Part shown: one piece after another, positions 3,268-26,954 of the stretch
Position numbering within the stretch: position 1 is the stretch's first letter
Layout of the letters: each line of letters opens with the position of its first letter
From: Patescibacteria group bacterium
GTDB lineage: Bacteria > Patescibacteriota > UBA1384 > XYA2-FULL-43-10
Length of the DNA stretch: 32,000 nt
Assembly (NCBI GenBank): GCA_041674405.1
Contig: JBAYVT010000004.1
Span: forward strand, 30,001-62,000
Reading direction: 5' to 3'
Notes under the pieces: generated by a model
Database searches by the model: none
What the model was told of the DNA's origin: nothing
The model's input: the letters and a program-made list of their open reading frames with translations, nothing else
Translations under genes and position numbers: made by a program

Positions 3268-3692
3268 TGCAAACAAGATTTTATAAAAATGAAGATTATG
3301 AATCTGTCAAATCAATTCTTTCGGAAGCAGATATGTTCGACGAGGTTTGGGATAGCAAACAACATCTCGCAAAAAAGATTCAATTAGAAGCCAAGGGCAT
3401 TCTCTTAGCCGTAGAAAATAAGGAAATCATCGGCTGCATTTATGTAAATCGTAATCCTTGGGCTTGTTTTCTGTATCGGTTAGCAGTGAGAAAACAATAT
3501 CGCAAAAAAGGGGCAGGAACGCTTTTGATTGAGACTGCTACCAACATGCTGCAAGAGGAAGGTGTTGAAGAAGTCGCAATTTATGTTGATTCCTCGAATG
3601 AAGATCTTCAAAATTTTTATGAAAAACGCGGATTTATCAAGGGCGGTCTTTATAGATGCATGTATAAAAAGCTTGATGGTGAAGACGAATGA
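3267..3692 (+). CDS. GNAT-family N-acetyltransferase
   Basis: LAVRKQYRKKGAGTLLIETA is the acetyl-CoA-binding Q/RxxGxG/A-type motif. The start overlaps the upstream stop (TAATG). Confidence 0.8.
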   Translation: MQTRFYKNEDYESVKSILSEADMFDEVWDSKQHLAKKIQLEAKGILLAVENKEIIGCIYVNRNPWACFLYRLAVRKQYRKKGAGTLLIETATNMLQEEGVEEVAIYVDSSNEDLQNFYEKRGFIKGGLYRCMYKKLDGEDE

Positions 3693-4264
3693 AAGTCCTC
3701 TTAATCGACAACAATACCAAGCATTTGAAAGAGCTCCGTGATCTTATCGAAGGTTGCGGGCATACTTCGGATACGATCAAATACACCGAGGCCAGCTCCG
3801 CAATCGCAGACCGATACGATCTCTCGATAATCACCGGTGGCCATCTTCTGGCGATTCCGAACCATAAGGAAGATTTGGCCCCGCAAATTGCGATGATCAA
3901 AGACATGCAGAAGCCGCTTCTGGGAATCTGTCACGGATTTCAACTCATAGCCTACACTTTCGGCGCCAAGCTTCACTACCGCACCGAACGGCTCAAAGGA
4001 ATCATCGAGGTCAATGTCTCTAAAACCGATCCTATCTTCGGTGAACTTACGAAGTTCGACGCGTTTGTGTCACACAAATATTACATCATGCGTCTGCCGA
4101 AAGAGCTTATCGAATTAGCGAGATCAAAATACAATATCGAGGCATTAAAACACAATAATCGGCCAATTTATGGCTTTCAGTTTCACCCTGAAGTAATAAC
4201 CCCGGGCAACACCAGCGGCCAAATATTGATCAATCTTTTTCGTGAAATTGAAAAACGCTCGTAA
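3689..4264 (+). CDS. Class I glutamine amidotransferase-like protein
   Basis: LLGICHGFQL is the nucleophile elbow with Cys, and YGFQFHPEV is the His/Glu region. It has an ATGA overlap with the upstream GNAT gene. Confidence 0.8.
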   Translation: MKVLLIDNNTKHLKELRDLIEGCGHTSDTIKYTEASSAIADRYDLSIITGGHLLAIPNHKEDLAPQIAMIKDMQKPLLGICHGFQLIAYTFGAKLHYRTERLKGIIEVNVSKTDPIFGELTKFDAFVSHKYYIMRLPKELIELARSKYNIEALKHNNRPIYGFQFHPEVITPGNTSGQILINLFREIEKRS

Positions 4265-4296
4265 TTTCTATTTTTCATCAAATTTTTATTACTTTT

Positions 4297-4324
4297 TTGA
4301 CAGAATCTTCAAAAGTTTTATAAT
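4297..4324 (+). promoter_or_regulatory. Sigma70-type promoter TTGACA-N16-TATAAT
   Basis: TTGACA at 4297-4302 and TATAAT at 4319-4324, about 30 nt upstream of the 4354 start. Confidence 0.6.
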
Positions 4325-4353
4325 GGAAGTAGCTATTATTTCTCGGAGGGATT

Positions 4354-4860
4354 TTGGCAAACGACCCAAAAACCACAGCTCCCAAGATTGACTTGTCCAA
4401 CGAGAAGCCGCTTTTTCAGTGGAAAGCAAATGAATTTGCGGAATATTCCAAAAATTCTTCTTGGTATCTATTGGTGATCGTGGTTGCGATTGCAATTGCA
4501 GCCGTGTTTTGGTGGCTTAAGAACTGGACTGCCATCGGAGTTGTAGCGGCAGCGGCTATTGCCCTCATTGCACAAGCCAAGACCAAGCCGAAAAGTGTAT
4601 CTGTCCAGCTATTTAGGGAAGGTATTGTTGTAAATAATAAAGTCTATCCTTATGATTCCTTAAAATCTTTTTGGATTATTTCCGGAGACCATCCGGTTTT
4701 TCGGCTCGAGCAAACCGGGTTTCTAAGGCCGCACATCAATGTGCCTATTGCCGAAGAAGATCCAGCACAGATTCAGCTTTTTTTGGCAAAATTTTTACCT
4801 GAAAACGAGAAAAAAGGCGAGGATATTGCCGATATCATCCAGAGATGGACGCGATTCTAA
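4354..4860 (+). CDS. Hypothetical membrane protein (two adjacent TM helices)
   Basis: WYLLVIVVAIAIAAVFWWL and AIGVVAAAAIALIA are hydrophobic helices. The start is TTG, preceded by GGAGGG. No family was recognised. Confidence 0.5.
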   Translation: MANDPKTTAPKIDLSNEKPLFQWKANEFAEYSKNSSWYLLVIVVAIAIAAVFWWLKNWTAIGVVAAAAIALIAQAKTKPKSVSVQLFREGIVVNNKVYPYDSLKSFWIISGDHPVFRLEQTGFLRPHINVPIAEEDPAQIQLFLAKFLPENEKKGEDIADIIQRWTRF

Positions 4861-5592: not shown

Positions 5593-5668
5593 TGGTACGC
5601 CCGGCAGGAATTGAACCTGCGACCTTCTGGACCGCAACCAGACGCTCTATCCACTGAGCTACGGGCGC
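5593..5668 (-). tRNA. tRNA-Arg (anticodon GCG)
   Basis: Reverse complement is GCGCCCG-TA-GCTC..TCTGG-TTGCGGT-CCAGA..GCAGG-TTCAATT-CCTGC-CGGGCGT-A-CCA. It is 76 nt with a G1-U72 wobble. Confidence 0.88.
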
Positions 5669-12366: not shown

Positions 12367-12684
12367 ATGAATTTAGTAGAAAAGGCGTACGCGGTTAGCA
12401 AAAACCAGTGGACTGGTTTGCTAAACCCAACAGCCACCACTTCGGGAAACTGGCAAGATATTGTTAATAACGTTATTAACATTGTCTTGATGGTAGCTGG
12501 TGCATTAGCGGTTATTTATCTAATCTATTCTGGCATTCTCTACATTACTGCGGCAGGTAATCCGGATTCAGCCAAAAAGGGTCAGCAAGGCATTATCAAT
12601 GCTGTGATCGGTATTGTGATCATCGTTGCCGCATTCTTCATCGTCAGAGCAGCAATGGGTCTTGCTGGGCAAGCTACAAAATAA
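12367..12684 (+). CDS. VirB2/TrbC-like (T4SS-pilin-like) small membrane protein 3, with its own promoter
   Basis: ALAVIYLIYSGILYITAAGNPDSAKKGQQGIINAVIGIVIIVAAFFIV is the cleanest copy of the shared module. Confidence 0.65.
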   Translation: MNLVEKAYAVSKNQWTGLLNPTATTSGNWQDIVNNVINIVLMVAGALAVIYLIYSGILYITAAGNPDSAKKGQQGIINAVIGIVIIVAAFFIVRAAMGLAGQATK

Positions 12685-12694
12685 GATCAATTGG

Positions 12695-14359
12695 TTAATC
12701 TTTCGTTACGCGCCAGACTTCTTCTGCAGTCGTAACGCCCGATAAAACTTTTGAAAGTCCGTCCTGTTCCATGGTAATCATGCCTGAAGACAGGGCGGCT
12801 TTTGTAAATTCCGAGAGTCCGGCTTTTTCGAATAATAGTTTATCGATTGACTCGTTTGGAACAAGCACTTCAATAATTACTTGCCGGCCAGAAAACCCGA
12901 CATTTCTACATTTTCCACATCCTTTTCCGCGTTTTAGCTTGGGAGCGGCACTTGATAACAAATTTTGGGATGCAGGATCCAATAATTTTTGAATAGGCAA
13001 CAAAGAGTCTTGAATTTCTTTCCAGACTTCAGGGCTGGGAGTATATTCCTCGGCACAAGCCGGGCATATTCTGCGCACGAGCCGCTGAGCCATAACCAAG
13101 TTTATTGATCCTGACAAGAGGAATGGTTTTACGCCAATATCAAGCAATCGGACAAAAACTCCGGGTGCAGAGTTGGCGTGAATAGTAGAGAGCAGCAAAT
13201 GGCCCGTCATGGCAGCCTGTATCGCAATTTCCGCCGTTTCGGTGTCTCTTACCTCCCCTACCATTAAAATGTCAGGATCTTGGCGCAGAGAGGCTCTAAG
13301 ACCCAAGGCGAAGGTATATCCCTCCTCTTTTTCAACCTGGCTCTGCTCCACACCGGGAATGTGATACTCGACAGGATCCTCAAGAGTGATTATTTTTACA
13401 TTTGACTTATTGAGCTCATGTAAAATTGCATAAAGCGTAGAGGATTTACCTGAACCGGTCGGTCCAGAAGTTAGAATCATCCCATGCGGCTTCGAAATTG
13501 CTGCCTCGATTACAGATAGCGCATCGGGCCTTATGCCCAAGTTCTTTAGGCTCAAGATTGACCCAGTTTGGCGGAGCAATCGGATTACAACGCTCTCTCC
13601 GTCAGCTGAAGGTAAGGTAGACACTCTTAAATCGATTGGCTCCTCTCCAAACTTGAAAGAAAACCTGCCGTCCTGCGGTTCGATGGCATTATCCATTTTT
13701 AGTTTCGATAAAAATTTTATTCTGGATAAAAGTGACTTATACTGGGACATCGGAAGAGACACGACGTTTTGCAAAACCCCGTCAATTCTGTATCGAATAA
13801 TGAATTCTTTTTCTGTCGGCTCAAGGTGGATATCTGATGCATTTGTTTTTGCTGCTCCGGTCATAATTACCTCGAGGAGATGGGTAGTTGATACGCTTCT
13901 GGCGACACTGGCAGCTGATTCTAAATCTTTAATCTCTTCCGTAAAGTTTTGCCCGGATTCTTTCGTTTCTTCGGCTTTCTTTTTTTCCTCTTTTTCTTTG
14001 TTTTCATAAGCCAGAATGCCGTAAAACAGGCTTGCTTTCGAAATTAATGATTTCACAAATTTCAATTTCGATGTTCTCTCAAGCTCGGCTAGATAAGATG
14101 CCATGGCATCATCCGAAGGGTTGGCTGTGCCAATTTTTACCGTAGACCCGATCTTTAAGTAAGGAATAATTTGAAACCTCAAGGCGATTTCCTTTGAAAT
14201 CAAATTTAAAATCTCCGGCGCAATCGGATAATTTGAGAGATTTATATATGGCAAATTCAGCTTTTTTGCCAATTCTTGGGTATGTCTCTCCTCCTGCTCG
14301 CGGTTGAGGTAAAAAATTGTCTTATTAAGATCAGGCAAGTTCCCTCCGGTCAAAAACAA
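12695..14359 (-). CDS. PilB/GspE-family secretion/pilus assembly ATPase
   Basis: It has an N-terminal T2SSE_N-like domain, Walker A GPTGSGKSST, the Asp/His box region, and a tetracysteine CPAC...CGKC motif. The start (TTG at 14359) is uncertain. Confidence 0.88.
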   Translation of the reverse strand: MFLTGGNLPDLNKTIFYLNREQEERHTQELAKKLNLPYINLSNYPIAPEILNLISKEIALRFQIIPYLKIGSTVKIGTANPSDDAMASYLAELERTSKLKFVKSLISKASLFYGILAYENKEKEEKKKAEETKESGQNFTEEIKDLESAASVARSVSTTHLLEVIMTGAAKTNASDIHLEPTEKEFIIRYRIDGVLQNVVSLPMSQYKSLLSRIKFLSKLKMDNAIEPQDGRFSFKFGEEPIDLRVSTLPSADGESVVIRLLRQTGSILSLKNLGIRPDALSVIEAAISKPHGMILTSGPTGSGKSSTLYAILHELNKSNVKIITLEDPVEYHIPGVEQSQVEKEEGYTFALGLRASLRQDPDILMVGEVRDTETAEIAIQAAMTGHLLLSTIHANSAPGVFVRLLDIGVKPFLLSGSINLVMAQRLVRRICPACAEEYTPSPEVWKEIQDSLLPIQKLLDPASQNLLSSAAPKLKRGKGCGKCRNVGFSGRQVIIEVLVPNESIDKLLFEKAGLSEFTKAALSSGMITMEQDGLSKVLSGVTTAEEVWRVTKD

Positions 14360-14726: not shown

Positions 14727-14751
14727 TTTGACGAGTTTATATCTCCAACTG

Positions 14752-14784
14752 AAAAAGCCGGCGCAAACTTCACGCCGACTTTTT
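14752..14784 (-). terminator. Hairpin terminator downstream of the GC-rich methyltransferase gene
   Basis: AAAAAGCCGGCG (14752-63) pairs with CGCCGACTTTTT (14773-84) with one mismatch. A/T runs on both sides make it potentially bidirectional. Confidence 0.65.
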
Positions 14785-14797
14785 AGTTCCTCACCTC

Positions 14798-15517
14798 CTA
14801 TTTCACCGCGCAGATTATGTCGTAGTTGGGCTCTGCCGCAAGGTTTGGTCTCAAGACTCTCTTCACCCCTAGCCCCCGAACAAGCCCTTCCATTTCGTTT
14901 GGCGCAAGCAAATACGAAAGTGAGCGGTTCTGGAACTGCTGCCCGCGAACGATACCCTTCCCCTCTATCACCCGCGTTCGCCGAAACCAATCGTGGGTGA
15001 TGTCAACCGCCATGCTGTAGCCGAGGAAGGAAAGGTTCAGGTGACCACCACCCTGATCAATCTCGTGCTGTGAGATCGTGTCGAGGTAGAGAAGTCCGCC
15101 GCTTTTTAAGGCAGCGAGCATTTCTTTTAGGCTTCTTCCGATCTCCATGCGACACCGACCAGGATCGAAGATATCGCCCTTCCCCCAGCCCCCCACGTTT
15201 GTTAAGCTGTTACCTCTGCATATCACAGCGTCGAAAGTCCTGGCCAGCTCGCGAGCCTTCCGCCAATCCAGTTTGCGAAACTCAATCGCCGGATGGCTGT
15301 GGCGAGCAGTGGCGATGTCGATCATCTCTTCGTCCGCATCGATCCCGACCCCTGTAAAGCCGCGCTCTGCTAAACCGTGCAGCACATGCCCACCGCCGCA
15401 TCCACACTCGATGATTGTTCTGACGCCGAGTTCCCGCAGTAAATCCGCTAGTTCTTTGATGAACTCCGAGCCATACATCAGCTCGGACAAGATTACCCAC
15501 TGCTGTGACAGAGTCAC
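14798..15517 (-). CDS. Class I SAM-dependent methyltransferase, glycine/sarcosine-N-methyltransferase-like (GC-rich)
   Basis: Motif I is IIECGCGGGHVLHGLAERGF. FDAVICRGNSLTNV and LKSGGLLYLD resemble the remembered GNMT-type post-I/III motifs. The GTG start overlaps the upstream stop (GTGA). Confidence 0.75.
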   Translation of the reverse strand: MTLSQQWVILSELMYGSEFIKELADLLRELGVRTIIECGCGGGHVLHGLAERGFTGVGIDADEEMIDIATARHSHPAIEFRKLDWRKARELARTFDAVICRGNSLTNVGGWGKGDIFDPGRCRMEIGRSLKEMLAALKSGGLLYLDTISQHEIDQGGGHLNLSFLGYSMAVDITHDWFRRTRVIEGKGIVRGQQFQNRSLSYLLAPNEMEGLVRGLGVKRVLRPNLAAEPNYDIICAVK

Positions 15518-16158
15518 GTGCCTTCAACCTCCTTCATCATGATCACTCGCAGGCCTCCTGTTGCTGCGTCCTCCGGAATAAAATCCGGAGCTATCCAGAG
15601 AAACTTACCCCCAAGCCGGTAGTAGAAGGCCAAGAGCGGGTCGAGGCAAAGTTCGCGATCAGTAGGAAAGGGCCCTCCCGCGAGATGTCGATCTATCGCC
15701 TCCTTGAACGCGGGCCTTTGTCTAATCCCTTCTCTTGGGCTTCCATTGTAGGAGGCCGGCCTCCCGTCAGCTATTCCAAGGATGCAACCATCCGACTTAA
15801 TTCGACCAAGCATAGCTTGCGCCAGTAATACTGCTGTGCGGGCATTGCGATACTTATCCTGCACGTTGAGGTTGTAGACGAAGGCACAATCATGGCTGGT
15901 CTCCATCGGCATCGTCGAGAACTCCCCAAAGTTTCTGGAAAATGCTTTGGGATCACTCGGATAAAACCGGGAGTAGGAAAAGCAGATTTTCCCAACCAGC
16001 TCCCCGTCCAGTCTGGCCCCAAGCATGATGTGTCCAAGGCGCAGCCGCTGCTCGATCAGCTCACGGCTGGCGCGCAGATAGGGCGGGAACGACAGGTTCT
16101 CGTCTTCGAGGATTTCGTCCAAATCCTCGAAAGACAACTCGACTATCATCGTGTCCAT
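15514..16158 (-). CDS. GNAT-fold acyltransferase-like protein (GC-rich), start revised
   Basis: The track ORF runs to 16299, but its first 47 codons lie in the AT-rich spacer. The ATG at 16158 (MDTMIVELSFEDL) is preceded by AAAGGAGG. The central VYNLNVQDKYRNARTAVLLAQAM resembles a GNAT beta4-alpha3 region. The family assignment is tentative. Confidence 0.5.
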   Translation of the reverse strand: MDTMIVELSFEDLDEILEDENLSFPPYLRASRELIEQRLRLGHIMLGARLDGELVGKICFSYSRFYPSDPKAFSRNFGEFSTMPMETSHDCAFVYNLNVQDKYRNARTAVLLAQAMLGRIKSDGCILGIADGRPASYNGSPREGIRQRPAFKEAIDRHLAGGPFPTDRELCLDPLLAFYYRLGGKFLWIAPDFIPEDAATGGLRVIMMKEVEGT

Positions 16159-16193
16159 AATGTCTCGCCTCCTTTGGATTCTTCGAAACAAAA

Positions 16194-16223
16194 AATTATC
16201 CCTCCGTCTTGGCAGGATGTCAA
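16194..16223 (-). promoter_or_regulatory. Sigma70-type promoter TTGACA-N18-ATAATT for the GC-rich two-gene operon
   Basis: On the minus strand, TTGACA is the complement of 16218-16223 and ATAATT is the complement of 16194-16199. The promoter lies in the divergent spacer shared with the TrmB-like regulator gene. Confidence 0.55.
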
Positions 16224-16308
16224 TAATTTGCACAGGGATTTTGTTAGTGATATCCTTTAATCGAGATTGTTTTATTAAAATGTTGTCAAAGTTTTTCACA
16301 AATAAGTT

Positions 16309-17067
16309 ATGAACTTACAGGCAATTTTAGAGGAATTCGGGCTTTCCAAACGCCAGGCCAGCGTCTATCTGGCAAATTTGGAGTTGGGAGAGGCGAGTGT
16401 TGCTCAAATTGCCGAAAAAGCTCAAATCGAGCGTACTGGCACCTACTACGTTATAGAATCGCTGTGCGGCAAAGGCCTTATCGTCGAGATTGAGCGAGGC
16501 AAAAAAGATTTTTTTGTCGCCATCGAGCCAAAAGAGCTGCTATCAATTGCAAAAAGAAGAGAAAAGTTGATATTAGAACACCTGCAGGAATTTGAGGCCT
16601 TTTCGAATATCTCCTCGGAGAAACCTCATGTCCGCCTTTACACCGGAATCAACGGAATAAAAACGGTTTTTTTAAAAACAATTGAGAAACCAAAAATACA
16701 GATGCTGGGCTTTTCACCCTACAGAACAGCCGAGAAAACCGCCTGGTACAACGGCAAAGAGTATGTGGAATGGGGTTTGGACTATATCAGGAAACGAGCC
16801 TCCAGAAGGATTTTCGCTCGCACCATCGCTGAAGATACACCGGAATCACAAGCGCGCAAGGGGAGAGACGCTGAAGAACTGCGGGAAACACGTCTGGTTC
16901 CACACGATAAATTCCTGTTCACCAACGAAATAGCCATCCTCGACGATTGGGTCGCGGTAATTTCATACAAAGAGATGGCTGCGCTTGTAATTGAATCAAA
17001 AGAATTTACTAAAACAATGAGATCAATTTTTGAACTAGCATGGGATGGAGCGGAAAAATATTTGTAG
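16309..17067 (+). CDS. TrmB-family transcriptional regulator
   Basis: The N-terminal winged helix, LEEFGLSKRQASVYLANLELGEASVAQIAEKAQIERTGTYYVIESLCGKGLI, is typical of TrmB-type regulators. Confidence 0.75.
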   Translation: MNLQAILEEFGLSKRQASVYLANLELGEASVAQIAEKAQIERTGTYYVIESLCGKGLIVEIERGKKDFFVAIEPKELLSIAKRREKLILEHLQEFEAFSNISSEKPHVRLYTGINGIKTVFLKTIEKPKIQMLGFSPYRTAEKTAWYNGKEYVEWGLDYIRKRASRRIFARTIAEDTPESQARKGRDAEELRETRLVPHDKFLFTNEIAILDDWVAVISYKEMAALVIESKEFTKTMRSIFELAWDGAEKYL

Positions 17068-17714: not shown

Positions 17715-18227
17715 CTACTGCTTGTTTGATTTTTTCGGTTTAATTACAATTCTTCTGTCTTGGCCGGTACCGATTGATTCTGATTCTACATCGGCAATAT
17801 TGGAAACAACCATGTGCACAATCCTTCTTTCGTATGAAGACATTGGGCTTAGCTCTTCGGATATTCCCGTGGCAAGCACTTGAAATGCTTTTTCCCGTGC
17901 ATGTTTTTTGGTGCCTTCAATCCTTTTGTCGCGATATCCGTCTATGTCAATAACCAGAGATTTGTTGTGCTGAGCGATTTCCTTTCCCATTATTGAGCGC
18001 AGAATATGCTGAAAAGACTCCAAGCCCTCCCCCCCTTTGCCAATTAGCAGAGCCGGCGATTCTAGGTTGAAGTTCATAAAAACTATATTGTCTTTAAATG
18101 TAACAATGGGATCAGCATCAAAGCCCATTAGGTCTAGGAGATTTTTTGAGTTGTCTTTAATTTTTAGGATCAATTCTTCCATTCTTGTCCTTCGATTTAA
18201 GTCTGCTGCAAAAGAATAATACCGCAC
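17715..18227 (-). CDS. jag: Jag/KhpB-type KH plus R3H RNA-binding protein
   Basis: The R3H region is MSSYERRIVHMVV. Its position directly after yidC is canonical. The start is uncertain: GTG at 18227 or ATG at 18182. Confidence 0.8.
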   Translation of the reverse strand: MRYYSFAADLNRRTRMEELILKIKDNSKNLLDLMGFDADPIVTFKDNIVFMNFNLESPALLIGKGGEGLESFQHILRSIMGKEIAQHNKSLVIDIDGYRDKRIEGTKKHAREKAFQVLATGISEELSPMSSYERRIVHMVVSNIADVESESIGTGQDRRIVIKPKKSNKQ

Positions 18228-18256: not shown

Positions 18257-19141
18257 CTATTTCTTTTCGCGTATGGTAATCGACACGCCTTTTTTCTTGT
18301 CCTGTTTATCAAGCCGGCCCTGCATTACCTTTGTCATTAAGTCTTTTTTTGCTGGTTTTTCGGCTTTATTTTCTTTGGGTTCATCAATCTGTACAGGACT
18401 TAATTCAGCCGAATTTTCGTTTTTAGTTTTTAGTTTTTCGTTCCGGATGTTTGTATTCACGTAATACTGCTGGCCGATGCTAAAAATTGTAGTGATAATC
18501 CAGTAAATCACCAAAGCCGCGGGAACAGACCGGGCGATGAAAATGGTGATTAGGGGAAAAAGAAATATCATCTGTTTGTTCATCATTGCCATCGGATCAT
18601 TCTTTTGTGTAGGAGAAGCCTTTGGAAGAGTCATCCACGAAAGTAACATCTGCGTGGCACCGGCAATAATCGGCAGAATCCACAAATCGTGCAGTGCCAG
18701 ATTAAACCCTAAAAATACCGTGTGCAAGGCTTCTGGGCGCGGCGTAAAGGAGTACAAAAGGTCATACCGAGAAGTATCAAGGCCGATTTGGAATACTTGA
18801 TATAGAATAATGATGATTGGAAGCTGAATTAAGAGAGGCAAACACGAGCCCCAAGGGGACGTCCCCTCTTCTTTGTAGAGCCTCATCATTTCCTCATTCA
18901 TTTTTTTCGGATCATCTTTGTGTTTCGTCCTGATTTCATTCATCTTTGGCTGAACCGCTTGCAGCTTTACACTCGCTTTTGCCGCCTTAAGGGAGCTTGG
19001 CAACAGAATCAAACGGATAATGATCGTTAAAATGACAATAGACCAACCCACAGAACCGCCCGTTGCCCATGCGAAAAAGATTAGAAGATTATAAAACGGA
19101 ATATAGAGCACTGCTCTAAAAATTTCTTTAATAAAACTCAT
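18257..19141 (-). CDS. yidC: Membrane protein insertase YidC
   Basis: GWSIVILTIIIRLILLPSSLKAAKASVKLQAVQPKMNEIRTKH is the YidC/Oxa1 core, and the protein is multi-TM. Confidence 0.9.
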   Translation of the reverse strand: MSFIKEIFRAVLYIPFYNLLIFFAWATGGSVGWSIVILTIIIRLILLPSSLKAAKASVKLQAVQPKMNEIRTKHKDDPKKMNEEMMRLYKEEGTSPWGSCLPLLIQLPIIIILYQVFQIGLDTSRYDLLYSFTPRPEALHTVFLGFNLALHDLWILPIIAGATQMLLSWMTLPKASPTQKNDPMAMMNKQMIFLFPLITIFIARSVPAALVIYWIITTIFSIGQQYYVNTNIRNEKLKTKNENSAELSPVQIDEPKENKAEKPAKKDLMTKVMQGRLDKQDKKKGVSITIREKK

Positions 19142-19279: not shown

Positions 19280-19513
19280 CTATTTGACTTCGTCAATTCC
19301 GCCACCACTCCATGGATTACATCTTAAAACGCGCCAAAACGCAAGTGCAAGGCCCTTTCCGGCCCCGTATTTCATCACCGCTTGGCGGCCATATTCCGAA
19401 CAATGCGGAGTATATTTGCAATATCCGCCTGAAAATCTTGCCGAAAACCAACCGGTGTCAGGAGACAATGTCCGCTGATATAATTCAATAATTTTTATAA
19501 CAATCTTTTTCAT
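19280..19513 (-). CDS. yidD: Membrane protein insertion efficiency factor YidD
   Basis: YQRTLSP...CKYTPHCSEYGRQAVMKYG...LRCNPWSGGGIDEV is the YidD signature. It has an ATGA overlap with rnpA. Confidence 0.9.
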   Translation of the reverse strand: MKKIVIKIIELYQRTLSPDTGWFSARFSGGYCKYTPHCSEYGRQAVMKYGAGKGLALAFWRVLRCNPWSGGGIDEVK

Positions 19514-19851
19514 TTAATTACATTTGCTCTTTTTAAGCCCTCTATTATCTGTAGTTTAATTTTTCCGTAATTATATGGCAGGGGAAAGTCTTGTTTAACC
19601 ATAATCGCTACATCAAAGCCTTGGTTTATCTGTGGCCAAGTTTCTTGCACAATGGCTCTCAGGCGTCTTCGAAGGGCATTGCGGCGGCTTGCCCTTTTAT
19701 CAATCTTGTTTGAAACAACAAATCCAAACCGGGATTTGTCCCGCCCCTTTGCAACACGAAAAACGAGGTTTTCTGTATAAATCGGTTTGGATGATTTAAA
19801 AATCTTCTGAAAATCTTTATTGGTTCGAAGTCTGTTTTGTTTTGGAAGCAT
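19510..19851 (-). CDS. rnpA: Ribonuclease P protein component
   Basis: MLPKQNRLRTNKDFQKIFK...FGFVVSNKIDKRASRRNALRRRLR is the RnpA pattern. Confidence 0.88.
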   Translation of the reverse strand: MLPKQNRLRTNKDFQKIFKSSKPIYTENLVFRVAKGRDKSRFGFVVSNKIDKRASRRNALRRRLRAIVQETWPQINQGFDVAIMVKQDFPLPYNYGKIKLQIIEGLKRANVIK

Positions 19852-19879
19852 GAGCCGATTTTAGCACAAATATGAGCTT

Positions 19880-19924
19880 AATACGAATAAACACAGAGAC
19901 AGCCACCTCGATGCGAGATGGCTG
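19880..19924 (-). terminator. Hairpin terminator downstream of the GC-rich secreted-protein gene
   Basis: CAGCCACCTCG (19900-10) pairs with CGAGATGGCTG (19914-24) in an 11-bp stem with one mismatch. A T-rich tract follows on the minus strand. Confidence 0.5.
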
Positions 19925-19953
19925 CCCTGAAAGTCCCTCCAGGTTGTTGGTCG

Positions 19954-20466
19954 CTAGAAGCGGCCGATGTTGTACTGGGCGCAGACGCTGTCGTCCTGCC
20001 CATCCACGCAGAGCCGGTATAGCCCTGATGCGCGGCCGGACTTCCAACAGAACTGGATGGTCTGGTAGGGCTTGCACCCCGCCTGGTATTTCACATACCC
20101 CATCGCATCCAGGCCCCTCACGATCTTGACCGGCGGCGTCGTAACGTCCGCCCGCCACGGGTCGTATCCCCACACACGAAGACACGAATTCCAGGGGTTG
20201 ACCTCGGCGCCGAGCCTCAGCCGCTCATTGTCCGTCCTGGCAAGCCAGAGGACATCGGCCGGCTTGTACCCTGCCATCAGCAGAGTGTAGGGCCCGTCCA
20301 CCTGCTGTTCGGCGTAGAACCACGCCGAACCGCGAGCAACGGTCACGGTTGCAGCCGTGTACTCGCCTTGGACGAACACACCCGGAGACACCGACACCTC
20401 GTCCGCGAAAGCGACCGAGACGGACAAAGCCAACATTGCGATCAGAACAGCGGTAATAGCGCGCAT
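19954..20466 (-). CDS. Secreted Cys/Trp-rich hypothetical protein (GC-rich)
   Basis: The signal peptide is MRAITAVLIAMLALSVSVAFA/DE. The mature protein is about 149 aa with 5 Cys. An AGGAGG SD lies 6 nt before the ATG. No family was recognised. Confidence 0.65.
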   Translation of the reverse strand: MRAITAVLIAMLALSVSVAFADEVSVSPGVFVQGEYTAATVTVARGSAWFYAEQQVDGPYTLLMAGYKPADVLWLARTDNERLRLGAEVNPWNSCLRVWGYDPWRADVTTPPVKIVRGLDAMGYVKYQAGCKPYQTIQFCWKSGRASGLYRLCVDGQDDSVCAQYNIGRF

Positions 20467-20512
20467 GTTTGCGCCTCCTGTACCCGAAATTGTACGCCTG
20501 ATACCGACAATT

Positions 20513-20541
20513 CAATATATACTATTTCTCATCAATTGTCA
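20513..20541 (-). promoter_or_regulatory. Sigma70-type promoter TTGACA-N17-TATATT for the GC-rich secreted-protein gene
   Basis: On the minus strand, TTGACA is the complement of 20536-20541 and TATATT is the complement of 20513-20518, with an exact 17-nt spacer. Confidence 0.6.
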
Positions 20542-20553
20542 ATCTTCTCGAGC

Positions 20554-20580
20554 ACAAAAAAAGAACCCGTGGGGCTCCCA
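20554..20580 (-). terminator. Rho-independent terminator after rpmH
   Basis: The minus-strand RNA GAGCCC-CAC-GGGTTC includes a G-U pair that only works on this strand, followed by TTTTTTT. Confidence 0.6.
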
Positions 20581-20646
20581 AATACATGATTAAATGGTTA
20601 TATTATTATTCTCAACAATTTAGCAATACAGCAATTTAGCAATTTA

Positions 20647-20784
20647 TTAGGCTGAAAGTTTCGCTCTGCCTTTCGCTCGGCGGTTTGCAAGAACATTTCT
20701 GCCGGCACGAGAAGCCATGCGCGAGAAAAACCCGTGTTTCTTTGCCCTTCTTCTTTTGTTTGGTTGGTATGTGCCTTTTTTCAT
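20647..20784 (-). CDS. rpmH: 50S ribosomal protein L34
   Basis: [45 protein letters not shown] is 45 aa. The track ORF (to 20940) is an upstream read-through extension. Confidence 0.92.
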
Positions 20785-20974
20785 AAGATCATTCTTCAAA
20801 AATAAAAACACCGAAATCGTGTTTGACTTAAGTAAAGTACCATAATTAATAGTTAAAGTCAACGATTTAGAGATAGTGGCTTTGCCCAGTGAAGAGCCCG
20901 AAACTGAACGAAGTGAATTTTGGAGTGTCTTCACGGACAAAGCAATACAATATATGCGTGCAGGAGTAAGGGTC

Positions 20975-21021
20975 TTAGGGGGCTAGAGGGCTGCCCCGCA
21001 ATTAAGCCCTCTGCCCCCTAA
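20975..21021. other. Long GC-rich imperfect palindrome/hairpin in the rpmH-dnaA spacer
   Basis: TTAGGGGGC-t-AGAGGGCT (20975-92) pairs with AGCCCTCT-GCCCCCTAA (21005-21). That is 17 bp with a 1-nt bulge and a 12-nt loop. Confidence 0.7.
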
Positions 21022-21114
21022 TATAATGGCTATTTTATTTGTAGGTTTCTCGGCAAGCTCGAAATGACAAGTGTATTTGAGATTGTCTGCCGTACTACGT
21101 CAGACAAGGCATTA

Positions 21115-21139
21115 ATCCCGAGCTTGTCGAGGGATTGAC
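21115..21139 (+). repeat. 25-bp direct repeat, copy 1 (ATCCCGAGCTTGTCGAGGGATTGAC)
   Basis: It is exactly identical to 21210-21234 and contains an internal 6-bp stem, AATCCC/GGGATT. A degenerate inverted relative lies at about 21047-21063. Confidence 0.8.
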
Positions 21140-21209
21140 TCATTCGACTGTGCTCAGAGTCAATCCAAAAACTTTGAGTAATTTATCACCATTATAGCCA
21201 CAGCAATTT

Positions 21210-21234
21210 ATCCCGAGCTTGTCGAGGGATTGAC
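21210..21234 (+). repeat. 25-bp direct repeat, copy 2
   Basis: It is exactly identical to 21115-21139 and sits 6 nt upstream of a perfect DnaA box. Confidence 0.8.
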
Positions 21235-21240
21235 ACACCC

Positions 21241-21249
21241 TGTGGATAA
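21241..21249 (-). promoter_or_regulatory. Perfect DnaA box (TGTGGATAA, complement of TTATCCACA) upstream of dnaA
   Basis: This is an exact 9-mer. The extended context CACCCTGTGGATAAC recurs at about 21587-21602 (inside dnaA) and at 23024-23040 (CACCCTGTGGAAAAC). Confidence 0.75.
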
Positions 21250-21293
21250 CTTGATATAGTTTTTACATAAGATTAATTGCCTTAAGGAACTGA

Positions 21294-22682
21294 ATGGACC
21301 TGGTCGAAATTTGGCGAAATTCATTAGGTGAACTCGAAGTGTCCATATCACGGGCCAATTTCACGACGTGGTTTAAAAATACTTTTATTCTCGACTTCAA
21401 AAAGGGCATTTTAACAATCGGGGTGCCAACTTTTTTTGTTGAGGATTGGCTCAAGAAAAAATATTTGTCCGAAATTGAAAAGGCACTAGCTCACCAGATC
21501 AGCGAGGAAATAAAACAAATAAAGTTTAAGGTTGCCACCCCTTCCACAGAGCAAGTAGTCAGGTTTGAAAAAGACAAAGTTGTCCACACCCCTGTGGATA
21601 ACAAGGAGGCTATTAAACCGACTCACATCGTTCAGACTTTAACAGAAAATTCGACACTAAATGACTATTATAGATTCGACAATTTTGTTGTAGGCTCATC
21701 CAACCAATTGGCATACGCTGCTGCCGACGCGGTTTCAAAAACCCCTGGAATTGTTTACAATCCTTTATTCATTTATGGCGATTCAGGTCTCGGCAAAACT
21801 CACCTAATGCAAGCCATCGGGCATCACGTCCTTTCAAAAAATCCAAACAAACGCATCCTTTATGTTAGTTCGGAAACTTTTGTTAATGATTATATTTCGG
21901 CTGTTGAGTCTGGTTCTGGAAAAGCAAAAGATTTCAAAAACCGTTATCGCAACGTCGATGTCCTTTTAATTGACGATATTCAATTTTTATCAGGCAAAGA
22001 GGGGACACAAGAAGAATTTTTTCACACCTTTAATCATTTACACCAAAACAAGAAACAAGTTGTCCTTACCGCTGACCGCACCCCGAAAGCAATTAAAGGG
22101 CTTGAGAGGCGCTTACAAACGCGTTTTGAGGGTGGAATGGTAGCTGACATCGGATTACCGGATTTAGAAACAAGAGCGGCAATTCTGCGACAGAAAGCCA
22201 AAGTTCAAAACTTTGAAGTGCCGGATGATGTCATCAACCATATTGCAGAAAATATTAAATCATCGGTCCGCGAGCTCGAAGGAGCATTGACTAAAATTTT
22301 TGCATTTTGCAATCTAAAACAATGCGAACCAAATATGTCGGTGGCTTCAGAAATATTAGGTAATATTATTGAAGACAGAAGAACCACTATTACTCCAGAT
22401 CTAATCATCCGAGAAATATGCAAATATTTTCATGTCCCTGTTGAGGATTTACTTGGCAGAAAAAGAAATAAAGAGATTGTGCGGCCAAGGCAGGTTGCAA
22501 TGTATCTTTTGCGCCACGAGGCATCACTTTCTTTTCCGGAAATTGGGCGGGAAATGGGAGGAAAAGACCACACTACTATTATGCATGGATGCACGAAGGT
22601 AGAGAGTGAAATATCACAAGACTTAAGGTTAAAAGATGAAATATCAAATATTAAAAACAAAGTTCATCTGGTAGTTTCTTAA
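21294..22682 (+). CDS. dnaA: Chromosomal replication initiator protein DnaA
   Basis: Walker A is GDSGLGKTHL, followed by LLIDDIQFL, the sensor regions and the C-terminal DNA-binding helix (RPRQVAMYLLR...DHTTIMH). Confidence 0.95.
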   Translation: MDLVEIWRNSLGELEVSISRANFTTWFKNTFILDFKKGILTIGVPTFFVEDWLKKKYLSEIEKALAHQISEEIKQIKFKVATPSTEQVVRFEKDKVVHTPVDNKEAIKPTHIVQTLTENSTLNDYYRFDNFVVGSSNQLAYAAADAVSKTPGIVYNPLFIYGDSGLGKTHLMQAIGHHVLSKNPNKRILYVSSETFVNDYISAVESGSGKAKDFKNRYRNVDVLLIDDIQFLSGKEGTQEEFFHTFNHLHQNKKQVVLTADRTPKAIKGLERRLQTRFEGGMVADIGLPDLETRAAILRQKAKVQNFEVPDDVINHIAENIKSSVRELEGALTKIFAFCNLKQCEPNMSVASEILGNIIEDRRTTITPDLIIREICKYFHVPVEDLLGRKRNKEIVRPRQVAMYLLRHEASLSFPEIGREMGGKDHTTIMHGCTKVESEISQDLRLKDEISNIKNKVHLVVS

Positions 22683-23118
22683 TTTTCCACATCGGTTTGG
22701 AAATAAAAACAGATATTTATTGTAATAACATTAATAATAAGGCCTGTGGATAGTGTGGAAATCTTTAAAAAATGTTTATCACTTTAACAATTTCAATAAA
22801 TATCCTGTGAATTAATTAGTGCACAAGCTGTGTCTTTCCTGTGAAAAAAGCTTTGTAAGTTGTTTATAACTTTTTCAATAAATTTTATCTTTGGAATAAT
22901 TCACATAAATATCCACAATTTTCCACAAGAAAAATCTCAGTTATCCACATATCACAAACAAGAAATAAGAAATAAGAAATGTGGTACTACAAAATTAGCC
23001 ATTAACCAAAACCAAAATTATCCACCACCCTGTGGAAAACATCAAAAGTAAATATCAAGCAAAAACCAATACATTATCTAATTAACCAGCCAATCAATTA
23101 ACTAAGAATAGAGGAAAA
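22683..23118. other. Candidate oriC (dnaA-dnaN spacer with a DnaA-box cluster and AT-rich tracts)
   Basis: Boxes: TTTTCCACA 22683-91; TGTGGATAG 22745-53; TGTGGAAAT 22754-62; ATATCCACA 22909-17; TTTTCCACA 22919-27; perfect TTATCCACA 22941-49; TTATCCACC 23018-26; TGTGGAAAA 23031-39. There is also (AAGAAAT)x3 at 22960-80. Confidence 0.75.
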
Positions 23119-24222
23119 ATGAAAGCGACAATATTACAATCGAATTTTTCAAAAGCAATTAATGTGGTTTCTCGTGTGGTTGGAACCCGCACAACGTTGC
23201 CAGTTTTAAACAATATTCTGCTTTCGATAGATAAAGGAAAAATCAAACTATCGGCAACCGATTTGGAGGTTGCTATCACAACCCAGGTTATCGGAAAAAT
23301 TGATGATTCGGGAAAGGTTACAATTCCAGCGAGACTCTTGTCCGATTTTGTCCACAATAACAGCGATGAGCAGATTTCTATTGAAACAAAAGATCTTTCC
23401 GTAAATTTGAGATCAGACAGATTTGAGGCAACAATCCAAGGTATTGATGCCGATGAATTCCCTACAATCCCCGATATGGACAAAGATGCTTTCTGTGAAC
23501 TTGCCGGGAAAGACTTAATTGATGTACTTAAAAAGGTCACTATATCCGCTGCAAATGATGAAACACGGCCGGTGCTAGCTGGTGTTTATATGAAATTTGA
23601 GGGAAAATCAGCAATTTTTGCTGCCACGGATTCATACAGACTGTCAGAAAAAAAGATTGCCCTTTCCAAGGAAGTAGAAAAAAAAGAAATCATTGTGCCG
23701 GCCCGAACCATGAATGAGCTACTTCGAATTCTTTCCGGTGAAATGGTGGAGAAAGTTAAATTAATCGCAGAAGAAAACCAAATTTCATTTGTGGTTGCCG
23801 ATACCCAGATCGTGTCGAGACTGATTGAGGGCAATTTCCCAAATTACGAACAGATTATTCCGAAGAGCTCGAAAATTAATGTTAAAGCCCCGACAAGCGA
23901 AACTCTTTCTGCTATTAAAATGTCGGCTCTTTTTGCCAAAGACATGGCAAACAACATCAAAATCATATGCAACAAAGATGGTATGACCGTAAAATCGGCA
24001 ACAACCGGCGCCGGATCGACAACATCACATGTGAAGGCAAATGTTTCCGGAGGTGAAATCGAGGTATCATTCAACGCCAGGTATCTTTTGGATGTGATAA
24101 ATATTCTTCCCGATGAAGACATTGTCCTAAGCTTTAATGATGAGGCGTCAGCCGGGGTTATTAAATCGGAAAAAGACAAAGAATTTGTCTATCTCGTCAT
24201 GCCACTAAGGACAGAACAATAA
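23119..24222 (+). CDS. dnaN: DNA polymerase III beta sliding clamp
   Basis: It is 367 aa, sits after dnaA, and has the typical three-domain pattern (PVLNNILL...LSATDLEVAI...; C-terminal YLVMPLR). Confidence 0.93.
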   Translation: MKATILQSNFSKAINVVSRVVGTRTTLPVLNNILLSIDKGKIKLSATDLEVAITTQVIGKIDDSGKVTIPARLLSDFVHNNSDEQISIETKDLSVNLRSDRFEATIQGIDADEFPTIPDMDKDAFCELAGKDLIDVLKKVTISAANDETRPVLAGVYMKFEGKSAIFAATDSYRLSEKKIALSKEVEKKEIIVPARTMNELLRILSGEMVEKVKLIAEENQISFVVADTQIVSRLIEGNFPNYEQIIPKSSKINVKAPTSETLSAIKMSALFAKDMANNIKIICNKDGMTVKSATTGAGSTTSHVKANVSGGEIEVSFNARYLLDVINILPDEDIVLSFNDEASAGVIKSEKDKEFVYLVMPLRTEQ

Positions 24223-25780: not shown

Positions 25781-25860
25781 GGTACCGCAGGGCGAGTGGG
25801 AGAGTGATTTAAGGATATCAAAATTCTAATTGTAAATGTCAAATAATTATCCACAGAACC

Positions 25861-25889
25861 TTGACTTTGGGGCAGTATTGTGGTATATT
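25861..25889 (+). promoter_or_regulatory. Sigma70-type promoter TTGACT-N17-TATATT (with TGg extended -10) for the GC-rich CsgG-like gene
   Basis: TTGACT is at 25861-66 and TATATT at 25884-89. A perfect DnaA box, TTATCCACA (25846-54), lies 6 nt upstream of the -35. Confidence 0.6.
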
Positions 25890-25972
25890 GGAGCGTTCGA
25901 TAATAATCCTTAGGGCGCACAGCTGCGATTAGCGCAGGCGTCCAAGGTACTGATTGTCAGGAGGTGGCAGAC

Positions 25973-26893
25973 ATGCGTCTGTCCACGATAATTGGGTTAG
26001 CTATGATGTTGGTGTCGGGGGCGTTCGCGGGAGAGATCGCAGTCTGCCCGCAGCCTACCCCTCAGAGACTGGCGATCGCGCCGGTCTCTGCCTCGTCCCT
26101 TGGCCAGTTCGAGTGGTGGGTGGACGAAGAGGAGGCGGCCGGCCTGGTCGAGGAGCGAGCCTATGAGGTCGCTCCCTGCATTCTGGCCGCCTACAACATG
26201 GAGCTGGTAGAGCGGAAGATGCTCGGGATCGCAGAGGCCGAGCAGGCCTTGGCAGAGGATCCGTACATGGACCCCACTACCTTCGAGCAGCCTGGCCAGG
26301 GCGTCGGCGCCAACTGGCTCCTGGTGGTTACGGTCACCAGGATGAGCGTGGAGGATAAGTCCGTGGACGTTGAGATCCGCGGCAACTCCTATCACGCTGA
26401 GAAGTCCATGATAACGGTCTGGCTGCAGGCGCGGATCGTCAATGTGGGGACGAAAGTCGTGTCACCCGCGCTATCGATTCGCAAGAACTGCACGATCACG
26501 ACTGACCAGCAGCTCAGCCTGCAGAGCGGCGAGTGGGATCTGGGCGGTGATCAGCGGACGGACATCGTGACCGATGCCGTCTATAAGATCACCGACTCTG
26601 GTCTTGCCGAGCTCTTGGGGCAGCTGCTGCCCAAGCTTGGCATCAGGACTGGGGCGCAAGCCGGATTCCGGTACGACCCGCAGACGGGCGAACGCATTTC
26701 GGTGATTGAGCAGACATACATCTGCCCGAACCCGAGATGCAACCGGATCTCGCCGAAAGGAGCGAACTTTTGCCCCTACTGCGGCGCCAGGTTGGACCGG
26801 CCCTGCGAACCCGCACCGGCAATCGAAAGGGCGCGGCCCTGTGAGCCGCCACCAGCCGCTAACCGCGACAAGGTGAACCACGCCGGCGGATAG
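25973..26893 (+). CDS. Secreted CsgG/LpoB-like-fold protein with a C-terminal zinc ribbon and Pro-rich tail (GC-rich), start revised
   Basis: The ATG at 25973 lies 8 nt after CAGGAGG; the track used a GTG at 25964. The signal peptide is MRLSTIIGLAMMLVSGAFA. MELVERKMLGIAEAEQAL...GANWLLVVTVTRMSVEDK...ITVWLQARIVNVGT parallels the CsgG-family pattern. The zinc ribbon is CPNPRCNRISPKGANFCPYCGARL. Confidence 0.55.
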   Translation: MRLSTIIGLAMMLVSGAFAGEIAVCPQPTPQRLAIAPVSASSLGQFEWWVDEEEAAGLVEERAYEVAPCILAAYNMELVERKMLGIAEAEQALAEDPYMDPTTFEQPGQGVGANWLLVVTVTRMSVEDKSVDVEIRGNSYHAEKSMITVWLQARIVNVGTKVVSPALSIRKNCTITTDQQLSLQSGEWDLGGDQRTDIVTDAVYKITDSGLAELLGQLLPKLGIRTGAQAGFRYDPQTGERISVIEQTYICPNPRCNRISPKGANFCPYCGARLDRPCEPAPAIERARPCEPPPAANRDKVNHAGG

Positions 26894-26917
26894 CCGGCAC
26901 CAAGGAGGAGAAGTACC

Positions 26918-26954
26918 AAAGGAGCGCCCTTAACCGGGCGCTTCCTTTGTGTTT
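26918..26954. terminator. Strong hairpin terminator between convergent genes
   Basis: AAAGGAGCGCCC (26918-29) pairs with GGGCGCTTCCTTT (36-48) with a 1-nt bulge, followed by GTGTTT. Confidence 0.7.

Follow-up and report, generated by a model that had tools for sequence, protein, structure and literature searches.

A GC-rich cassette encoding a rare signal-peptide protein with a predicted beta-barrel fold separates rpmH from rnpA in an uncultured Patescibacteria bacterium

Results

The 32-kb stretch of DNA analyzed here (the window; contig JBAYVT010000004.1) is the replication-origin region of an uncultured bacterium of the Patescibacteria, or Candidate Phyla Radiation (CPR), and carries on its minus strand a GC-rich single-gene cassette lodged between rpmH and rnpA. 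The rpmH gene (20647-20784) encodes ribosomal protein L34 (45 amino acids (aa); Pfam Ribosomal_L34, E 2.9e-20), and rnpA (19510-19851) encodes the 113-aa RNase P protein (Pfam Ribonuclease_P, E 1.6e-21). The spacer between them (19852-20646), given as about 800 bp in a first-pass annotation of the same DNA, measures 795 bp and holds, in the direction from rpmH to rnpA, an rpmH terminator, a promoter, an AGGAGG motif, an open reading frame (ORF) of 170 codons, hereafter ORF170, and a hairpin. Beyond rnpA lie yidD (19280-19513, minus; Pfam YidD), which overlaps rnpA by 4 nt, yidC (18257-19141, minus; 60KD_IMP in the gene table of locus L001) and jag/R3H (17715-18182, minus; R3H in the same table), giving a minus-strand order of rpmH, ORF170, rnpA, yidD, yidC, jag. 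The dnaA gene (21294-22682) faces away from this cluster on the plus strand.

Each sequence feature listed in the first-pass annotation was recovered at its place. The scan for intrinsic terminators identifies one belonging to rpmH itself (20551-20579, minus), in which an 8-pair stem (20579-20561) is followed by the T-run TTTTTGTGCT; a terminator after rpmH is known from Escherichia coli too. The sigma-70 promoter of the cassette, TTGACA-17-TATATT (20542-20514, minus), scores 11 of 12 matches and is the top site of a scan over 19400-21300. From the transcription start that this sequence predicts, the message would open with a putative leader of about 41 nt (20467-20507, minus) that is GC-rich already. 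An AGGAGG Shine-Dalgarno (SD) sequence (20474-20479, minus) stands 7 nt ahead of the ATG at 20466, where the ORF170 coding sequence (CDS) begins (19954-20466, minus; 170 aa; NCBI MFA7244266.1, 'hypothetical protein WC080_03215', on a contig of 158 kb). On the 3' side of the gene the terminator scan finds a hairpin (19897-19927, minus) of 14 pairs, 8 of them G-C, followed by CTGTGTTTAT. Together with its context this hairpin folds at about -29 kcal/mol in RNAfold, and it is likely an intrinsic terminator with a weak U-tract. All four parts of the autonomous promoter-SD-ORF-hairpin unit proposed earlier are present, and the same construction recurs elsewhere: near-consensus promoters (10-12 of 12 matches) precede six of eight related cassettes, and a strong hairpin sits 3' of all eight.

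The rnpA gene lacks an SD sequence (best match 3 of 6). The extended -10-like element TGcTAAAAT (19858-19866, minus), also proposed in the first pass, ends 6 nt ahead of its ATG, and in a second locus, L008, TAAGAT stands 6 nt ahead of the rnpA start codon. The geometry fits, and TGcTAAAAT is a plausible candidate promoter for a leaderless rnpA-yidD-yidC-jag transcript. Expression of the cluster would then proceed in separate units. Transcription of a monocistronic rpmH would halt at that gene's own terminator, the cassette would be transcribed independently from its own near-consensus promoter, and rnpA-yidD-yidC-jag would be re-initiated at the TGcTAAAAT element as a leaderless mRNA, to which read-through of the cassette hairpin, with its weak U-tract, might add.

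To place the 795-bp spacer in context, rpmH-rnpA spacing was surveyed in the surroundings of DnaA homologues (160 loci, taken from GTDB genomes and JGI metagenomes), with gap statistics drawn from the 87 loci in which L34 and RnpA are both detected on one strand. The median gap is 59 bp, the 95th percentile lies at 258 bp and the widest gap measures 506 bp; in the 14 loci with CPR lineage titles the range is -4 to 134 bp. None of the 87 loci contains a gene between rpmH and rnpA, since even the four largest gaps are full of stop codons. Given this maximum and the lack of any intervening gene in the 87 loci, the 795-bp gap with its internal gene is a true exception, and the original claim that a tight adjacency is broken here is borne out. 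In bacteria generally, rnpA is co-transcribed with, or lies close to, rpmH (PMC10941002).

Support for the junctions near 19925 and 20470, which the first-pass annotation had called for, comes from four independent assemblies (ENA, JGI and two Logan assemblies, from different samples) that are 100% identical to the window over 1-20 kb across both junctions. A search via DnaA in the same GTDB and JGI collections yielded no close relative with an empty site; DnaA identity there reaches 48-49% at best, and the lineage is therefore essentially unsampled.

The composition of the cassette departs sharply from that of its surroundings. ORF170 has a GC content of 0.626 and a third-codon-position GC content (GC3) of 0.795, against a background of about 0.44 (0.436) GC and 0.42 GC3; the 26 other window genes that lie outside GC-rich islands have GC3 values of 0.32-0.55. 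The GC-rich block spans about 19867-20515 and has sharp edges.

The encoded protein contains 5 Cys, 6 Trp and 10 Tyr. Its N-terminus, MRAITAVLIAMLALSVSVAFA|DE, reads by eye as a signal-peptidase-I signal peptide of 21 aa (...VAFA|DE; 20404-20466, minus) without a lipobox, leaving a mature protein of 149 aa; the description of a 170-aa signal-peptide protein with 5 Cys and many Trp and Tyr is confirmed. It had also been noted that the protein belongs to no recognizable family, and profile searches agree. ORF170 has no Pfam or NCBIfam match, the members of its family have no Pfam match even at E <= 10, and the family profile has no sequence match in the PDB. A word-indexed search of 5.8 billion clusters returned only ORF170 itself. 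An exhaustive phmmer (HMMER) scan of 1.84 billion representatives, which stand for about 15 billion proteins, yielded three small full-length relatives, P0005, P0006 and P0008, and a profile search added P0009 and P0010. Four further candidates from the phmmer scan, P0002-P0004 and P0007, were rejected as compositional or repeat artefacts that match over many short stretches and nowhere over full length. Searching with the family profile turned up no additional member, either in some 160 dnaA-region loci or in the rest of the window.

The resulting family comprises six members of 170-191 aa, the five relatives being 24-35% identical to ORF170. All six have an equivalent signal-peptide N-terminus, judged by eye, and all six end in F or W. 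For the three closer members the dN/dS values are 0.19-0.25 and dS is saturated (1.4-1.7); a dN/dS of about 0.2 indicates that these are real proteins under purifying selection.

A GC-rich block in an AT-rich genome calls for caution before it is read as a gene, since such blocks are often RNA genes and since GC-rich DNA yields long ORFs by chance; in the present block several overlapping ORFs (72-122 aa) are open in other frames. ORF170 might accordingly be a chance ORF in GC-rich non-coding RNA or spacer, or part of a chimeric assembly, with nothing biological to explain. Against a chance ORF stand the protein homologues with their dN/dS of about 0.2, the order GC3 > GC1 > GC2 across the codon positions of ORF170, which fits the reading frame, and the perfect SD sequence, correct spacing and signal peptide at the ORF170 start. 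A non-coding RNA is countered by Rfam, which has no match in the gap at gathering thresholds or, for 19750-20700, at E <= 1, and by a folding z-score of only -0.8 to -1.3 for the CDS. Chimerism is countered by the four assemblies that are identical across the junctions, and by strain variants of L005 and L008, the loci of P0006 and P0009, that keep their contexts. The non-biological reading is refuted for practical purposes, and we give it next to no probability: ORF170 is a real gene of a very rare, unnamed protein family.

Folding of the coding RNA differs among the family members. Against dinucleotide shuffles, P0006 (L005:10001-10537) reaches z = -6.0 to -6.7, and P0009 (L008:908-1429), P0010 (L009:676-1218) and P0008 (L090:693-1268) lie at about -3.8. 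No strong excess of folding is seen for ORF170 (-0.8 to -1.3), P0005 (-1.0) or AT-rich control genes (-1.6 to +1.4). Stable coding-RNA folding could relate to why the family genes stay GC-rich.

The elevated composition is shared by the whole family. Paired values of gene GC3 and flank GC are 0.80 and 0.44 for ORF170 in the window, 0.73 and 0.39 for P0006, 0.70 and 0.36 for P0005, 0.62 and 0.33 for P0009, 0.69 and 0.39 for P0010, and 0.78 and 0.37 for P0008; every one of the six members exceeds its flanks by 17-25 GC points. Across the family GC3 tracks flank GC (r = 0.81, p = 0.052, n = 6), a correlation that is suggestive only. In contigs long enough to judge, the genomic contexts are housekeeping regions of Patescibacteria type: P0006 (L005) lies near pilMNO, T2SS-F and TrmB, P0005 near RNase HII, L32, NusB and RNase III, and P0009 (L008) near TrmB and rnpA.

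Locus L008 also bears on the position of the cassette. Its RnpA is the best match to the RnpA of the window (46% identity, 107 bits, compared with at most 74 bits in about 160 other loci), and it carries P0009 directly upstream of rnpA. With a family member upstream of rnpA in the locus nearest by RnpA, the position is either old or a preferred landing site, which weakens the one-off insertion implied by the first-pass annotation. The homology between L005 and L008 covers exactly the 5' untranslated region (UTR; about 45 nt), the CDS and the 3' hairpin, and the flanks are unrelated; because the homology stops at the module, the unit that was inherited or moved is the GC-rich module itself. In this comparison (L005:9950-10600 versus L008:860-1490) the 5'UTR, which contains GCCGGCGGGC, and the outer stem of the hairpin on the 3' side, TCGTAAGAGC...GAGCCTCGCCTTATGA, are 85-100% identical. 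As the UTRs have stayed this similar though synonymous sites are saturated (dS 1.4), they are under sequence constraint beyond simple termination.

The composition of ORF170, whose cassette the first-pass annotation called foreign, could be the mark of a recent horizontal import from a GC-rich organism, for instance the host of the symbiont, that happened to land between rpmH and rnpA and still shows un-ameliorated donor GC. Several observations speak for such an import: the contrast of 0.626 GC and 0.795 GC3 with a background of about 0.44 and 0.42, the sharp compositional edges, a second cassette 5.5 kb away with nearly the same composition (0.627 and 0.79), as if both had come from one donor, and the fact that none of 87 other loci has a gene here. 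Cases of horizontal gene transfer into Patescibacteria are also documented (PMC12455944). The donor, however, does not appear. The phmmer scan returns relatives only in AT-rich, Patescibacteria-like contigs and no homologue in GC-rich DNA among the 1.84 billion representatives. Assemblies from the very sequencing runs in which these contigs occur are part of the searched collection. No relatives were found in IMG/VR, GenBank phages or PLSDB. Six members past synonymous saturation all retain high GC3, a member occupies the same place in the closest relative by RnpA, and the cassette flanks show no integrase, terminal inverted repeats or target-site duplication. The strikingly deviant composition on which the label 'foreign' was based therefore stands, and the foreign origin does not follow from it, with no donor found and six members equally GC-rich in AT-rich contigs. 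A single recent import from a GC-rich donor is less likely than a resident or circulating cassette family, and we regard it as possible, if on the whole unlikely.

Known classes of mobile element were considered in turn. A transposon, a miniature inverted-repeat transposable element or an integron was rejected, since the cassette is not flanked by inverted or direct repeats above the chance level and has no attC core, and since the window encodes neither an integrase nor a transposase. Integron cassettes share with the ORF170 cassette a single gene, a deviant composition and a 3' end that forms a hairpin. They differ in that each unit here has its own promoter, with no attC consensus, integrase or array, and in that the units are dispersed; by eye the 3' hairpin has no R''/R' (RYYYAAC/GTTRRRY) cores, and no integrase is encoded in the window. 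A prophage or plasmid origin was rejected on the lack of relatives in IMG/VR, GenBank phages and PLSDB.

A prediction of structure for ORF170, which the first-pass annotation lacked although it had asked for profile and structure searches, was obtained with AlphaFold. From the single sequence the model of ORF170 reaches a pLDDT of 44.5. For the mature 149-aa protein modeled with an alignment of five sequences, pLDDT rises to 79.6 with a pTM of 0.66. This model consists of 13 beta-strands in succession, each 4-10 residues long and linked to the next by a turn of 2-6 residues, and contains no helix; the strand count is 13 by DSSP and 12 if residues 84-95 are taken as one strand kinked at Pro-Pro. 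Foldseek places a designed transmembrane barrel, 8uzl, first against the PDB (E 3.4e-4, TM-score 0.46), and the other leading matches are a Rhodopseudomonas porin, NanC (TMq 0.54), VDAC and Omp33. The soluble barrels of the FABP/CRBP type come next, with TM-scores of 0.43-0.47 and a root-mean-square deviation (rmsd) of about 5 Å. In the viral library the top matches are uncharacterized phage proteins; several further matches carry the names autotransporter beta-domain, opacity protein or outer membrane beta-barrel. These scores are weak (TM 0.45-0.54) and point to architecture rather than homology.

Closer examination of the predicted strands shows a difference between their faces. We compared the two faces of every predicted strand across the family with a Mann-Whitney test. 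On the hydrophobic face 74% of the residues are hydrophobic, V/I/L/F/A/W replace one another and the mean identity is 0.48, whereas the polar face is 40% charged or polar and has a mean identity of 0.60 (p = 0.01 versus the hydrophobic face). Most of the invariant strand residues lie on the polar face, among them Y15, Y30, E32, R56, D58, R63, G65 and D86. With the polar face conserved and the hydrophobic face variable, the pattern would be that of a membrane barrel rather than of a soluble barrel with a hydrophobic core. A membrane barrel is also favored by the invariant C-terminal aromatic residue and by the canonical ending of P0006 and P0010, I/V-x-Y-x-L/I-x-W; in ORF170 (...QYNIGRF), P0005, P0008 and P0009 this beta-signal pattern is shifted or partial.

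The same cassette could instead encode a soluble secreted ligand-binding barrel, a 'beta-clam' of the FABP or lipocalin kind that would scavenge, for example, lipids or hydrophobic host nutrients. To our knowledge Patescibacteria generally lack lipid synthesis, and the conserved internal Arg and Tyr residues are reminiscent of the carboxylate-binding residues of FABPs, whose structures also give the lowest rmsd among the Foldseek matches listed. A soluble carrier is further attractive in a phylum thought to have no outer membrane (PMC12102498). The details of the ORF170 model fit such a carrier less well. The model contains no helix and has 12-13 strands, wider than the soluble barrels of 8-10 strands, and its hydrophobic face is the less conserved one, the opposite of what a hydrophobic-core protein presents. 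FABPs have a helical lid and lipocalins a C-terminal helix. The strictly conserved C-terminal F/W has no role in that fold, and the best Foldseek E-values belong to transmembrane barrels. We therefore consider the soluble carrier rather doubtful and lean slightly towards ORF170 as a membrane barrel resembling an outer-membrane protein (OMP), a preference based on the predicted model and on conservation.

Discussion

The arrangement described above recalls the 'morons' of phage genomes, in the concept of Hendrix and Juhala autonomous promoter-gene-terminator units inserted between two conserved genes. Like a moron, the ORF170 cassette has a single gene with its own strong promoter and its own terminator hairpin, a composition unlike that of its neighbors (GC 0.626 versus 0.436; GC3 0.795 versus 0.32-0.55) and a position between genes that are adjacent in relatives. 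Unlike a moron, it resides in the origin-proximal core cluster dnaA | rpmH-rnpA-yidD-yidC-jag of a Patescibacteria chromosome rather than in a prophage, it has no relatives detected among phages, plasmids or IMG/VR, and its deviant composition is common to all the diverged members of its family. In architecture the cassette matches the moron concept in all but phage residence. The canonical rpmH-rnpA(-yidD-yidC) operon (PMC10941002) is otherwise recognizable, the order rpmH ... rnpA-yidD-yidC-jag beside dnaA being kept. It differs here in the whole foreign-looking transcription unit between rpmH and rnpA and in an rnpA that lacks an SD sequence and appears to need its own, possibly leaderless, promoter.

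The predicted protein finds its nearest counterparts among small monomeric OMPs, namely 12-strand KdgM/NanC (PDB 2wjq) and 8-strand OmpX/OmpW. Like them, ORF170 has a signal peptide and an all-beta hairpin meander, predicted amphipathic strands of 8-10 residues with short turns, a predicted arrangement of conserved polar lumen face and variable hydrophobic face, and a C-terminal F/W; such proteins are also among the top fold matches of the model. In contrast, ORF170 has no sequence similarity to any OMP family and reaches TM-scores of at most 0.54, its mature form has 149 residues where NanC has about 205 aa, and it comes from a phylum that is regarded as monoderm and has no BAM known. The best Foldseek match of all (E 3.4e-4), the de novo transmembrane barrel TMB10_163 (PDB 8uzl), is a minimal-loop meander barrel of the same size class (about 140 aa). 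As an artificial protein with 12-15% identity and a TM-score of 0.46, it offers a similarity that is purely architectural.

We propose the following account. The unit would be a phage-'moron'-like cassette placed in a core operon. Its product would be exported via Sec, and the signal peptide cleaved. The remaining 149 aa would fold into a small closed meander beta-barrel of about 12 strands, with the variable hydrophobic face outward, the conserved polar and charged face inward and the aromatic residue at the end, as in a membrane-embedded porin- or OMP-like protein, most likely a channel or anchor that works on the cell surface or where symbiont and host meet. The GC-richness would be a trait maintained in a family of cassettes resident in these Patescibacteria or mobile among them, with selection on mRNA, expression or biased gene conversion as candidate maintaining forces. 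Taken whole, as a moron-like cassette with an OMP-like exported barrel and GC-richness as a family trait, this account, in which function and origin are deduced, seems to us evenly poised.

A number of points weigh against it. Because no close relative with an empty site was found, the boundaries and age of the insertion are not fixed. Transcription starts, termination and the leaderless rnpA are all read from sequence signals. The notion of maintained GC rests on six sequences and a borderline correlation. On the structural side, the model derives from a five-sequence alignment, its matches have TM-scores of only 0.45-0.54 with large rmsd, and the soluble FABP/CRBP barrels score similarly (0.43-0.47). 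The outward orientation of the hydrophobic side is deduced from conservation and not from model coordinates, and ORF170 lacks the clean alternating beta-signal of P0006 and P0010. Finally, Patescibacteria are thought to have no outer membrane (PMC12102498), and no BamA/Omp85-type gene is present in the 32-kb window, which covers only part of the genome.

A bolder version would take the ORF170 family as Patescibacteria-specific minimal transmembrane barrels of about 150 aa and about 12 strands that carry a BAM-type C-terminal signal in a cell without an outer membrane of its own. Such barrels would lodge in a diderm host's outer membrane, or in a so far unrecognized outer layer around the symbiont, and serve there as an anchor or a conduit for nutrients. 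They would be encoded on strongly expressed cassettes whose GC-richness, with unusually stable mRNA folding in several members, is actively maintained against AT bias rather than inherited from a donor. We regard this version as speculative and quite improbable.

What is new here is a moron-like accessory cassette with a new protein family; the kind of cassette is known. Two aspects are intriguing and unproven, an OMP-like barrel in a supposedly monoderm phylum and family-wide GC-richness with no visible donor. If the membrane barrel is true, ORF170 would rank among the smallest natural ones, in a phylum regarded as lacking an outer membrane, and would bear on how ultra-small episymbionts contact and tap their hosts; at 149 aa it is also a clonable candidate. 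A saturated family that still lies about 20 GC points above AT-rich genomes, with no visible GC-rich donor in about 15 billion proteins, challenges the routine reading of deviant GC as recent transfer. One of the most conserved adjacencies in bacteria can moreover be broken while the essential genes downstream are kept, apparently through a new promoter for rnpA. Should none of this hold, what is left is an accessory cassette with an ordinary hypothetical secreted protein.

Other features of the window and of related loci

The window contains two further GC-rich cassettes of the same build, both of which the first-pass annotation missed. A sister cassette on the plus strand (25862-26950) consists of a TTGACT-17-TATATT promoter, an AGGAGG motif, a CDS (25973-26893) and a terminator hairpin, and its GC of 0.627 and GC3 of 0.79 match the composition of the ORF170 cassette. 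It encodes a 306-aa protein (NCBI MFA7244272.1) with a signal peptide and a C-terminal zinc ribbon. Homology between this protein and ORF170 was considered and none was found. The first 540 nt of its CDS (25973-26512) fold with a z-score of -2.9, and a perfect DnaA box, TTATCCACA, lies at 25847-25855, just upstream of its -35 element at 25862. The third island, on the minus strand (14750-16235), is milder, with GC3 of 0.63-0.65; between its own TTGACA-17-GATAAT promoter and AGGAGG motif on one side and a terminator on the other, it encodes a GNAT-like 214-aa protein and a 239-aa S-adenosylmethionine-dependent (SAM) methyltransferase. It is divergent from a TrmB-family regulator (16309-17067), and TrmB-like genes are divergent neighbors also of P0006 (L005) and P0009 (L008).

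Comparable islands accompany other family members. P0008 is the second gene of a two-gene GC-rich island (L090:136-1268; GC 0.61-0.63) with AT-rich flanks. The first gene of that island overlaps P0008 by 4 nt and encodes a 186-aa beta-rich protein with a signal peptide, which was examined as a family homologue and set aside because the similarity is not significant. The island adjoins a gene that by eye resembles a HicB-type antitoxin (weak Pfam DUF7387). In L005, a second GC-rich gene (12642-13490; 282 aa, GC 0.56, GC3 0.66, no Pfam match) lies 2 kb downstream of P0006. It therefore seems that a genome with a family member has several GC-rich ORFan genes.

Islands of this kind are rare: among the 141 loci of at least 5 kb, ORFan-type protein-coding GC islands occur only in the window (two), in L005 (two) and in one other locus. 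That locus, L012, from a metagenome-assembled genome of Magasanikbacteria, holds the sole other such island of the dnaA-region survey, a 361-aa gene (3557-4639; GC 0.58 versus 0.435) with a lipoprotein-like signal (...LLVSC) about 1 kb from rpmH/rnpA.

The remaining window genes are small-genome housekeeping genes together with genes for type IV pilin, secretion and giant surface proteins. Between dnaA and dnaN (23119-24222, plus), seven DnaA boxes (TTATCCACA, at most 1 mismatch) cluster at 22683-23039, about 2.2 kb from the cassette, and this cluster is probably oriC; across the whole window there are 18 DnaA-box matches against 7.5 expected. ARAGORN calls a tRNA-Arg with anticodon GCG at 5593-5668 on the minus strand, an unusual anticodon for the decoding of arginine in bacteria.

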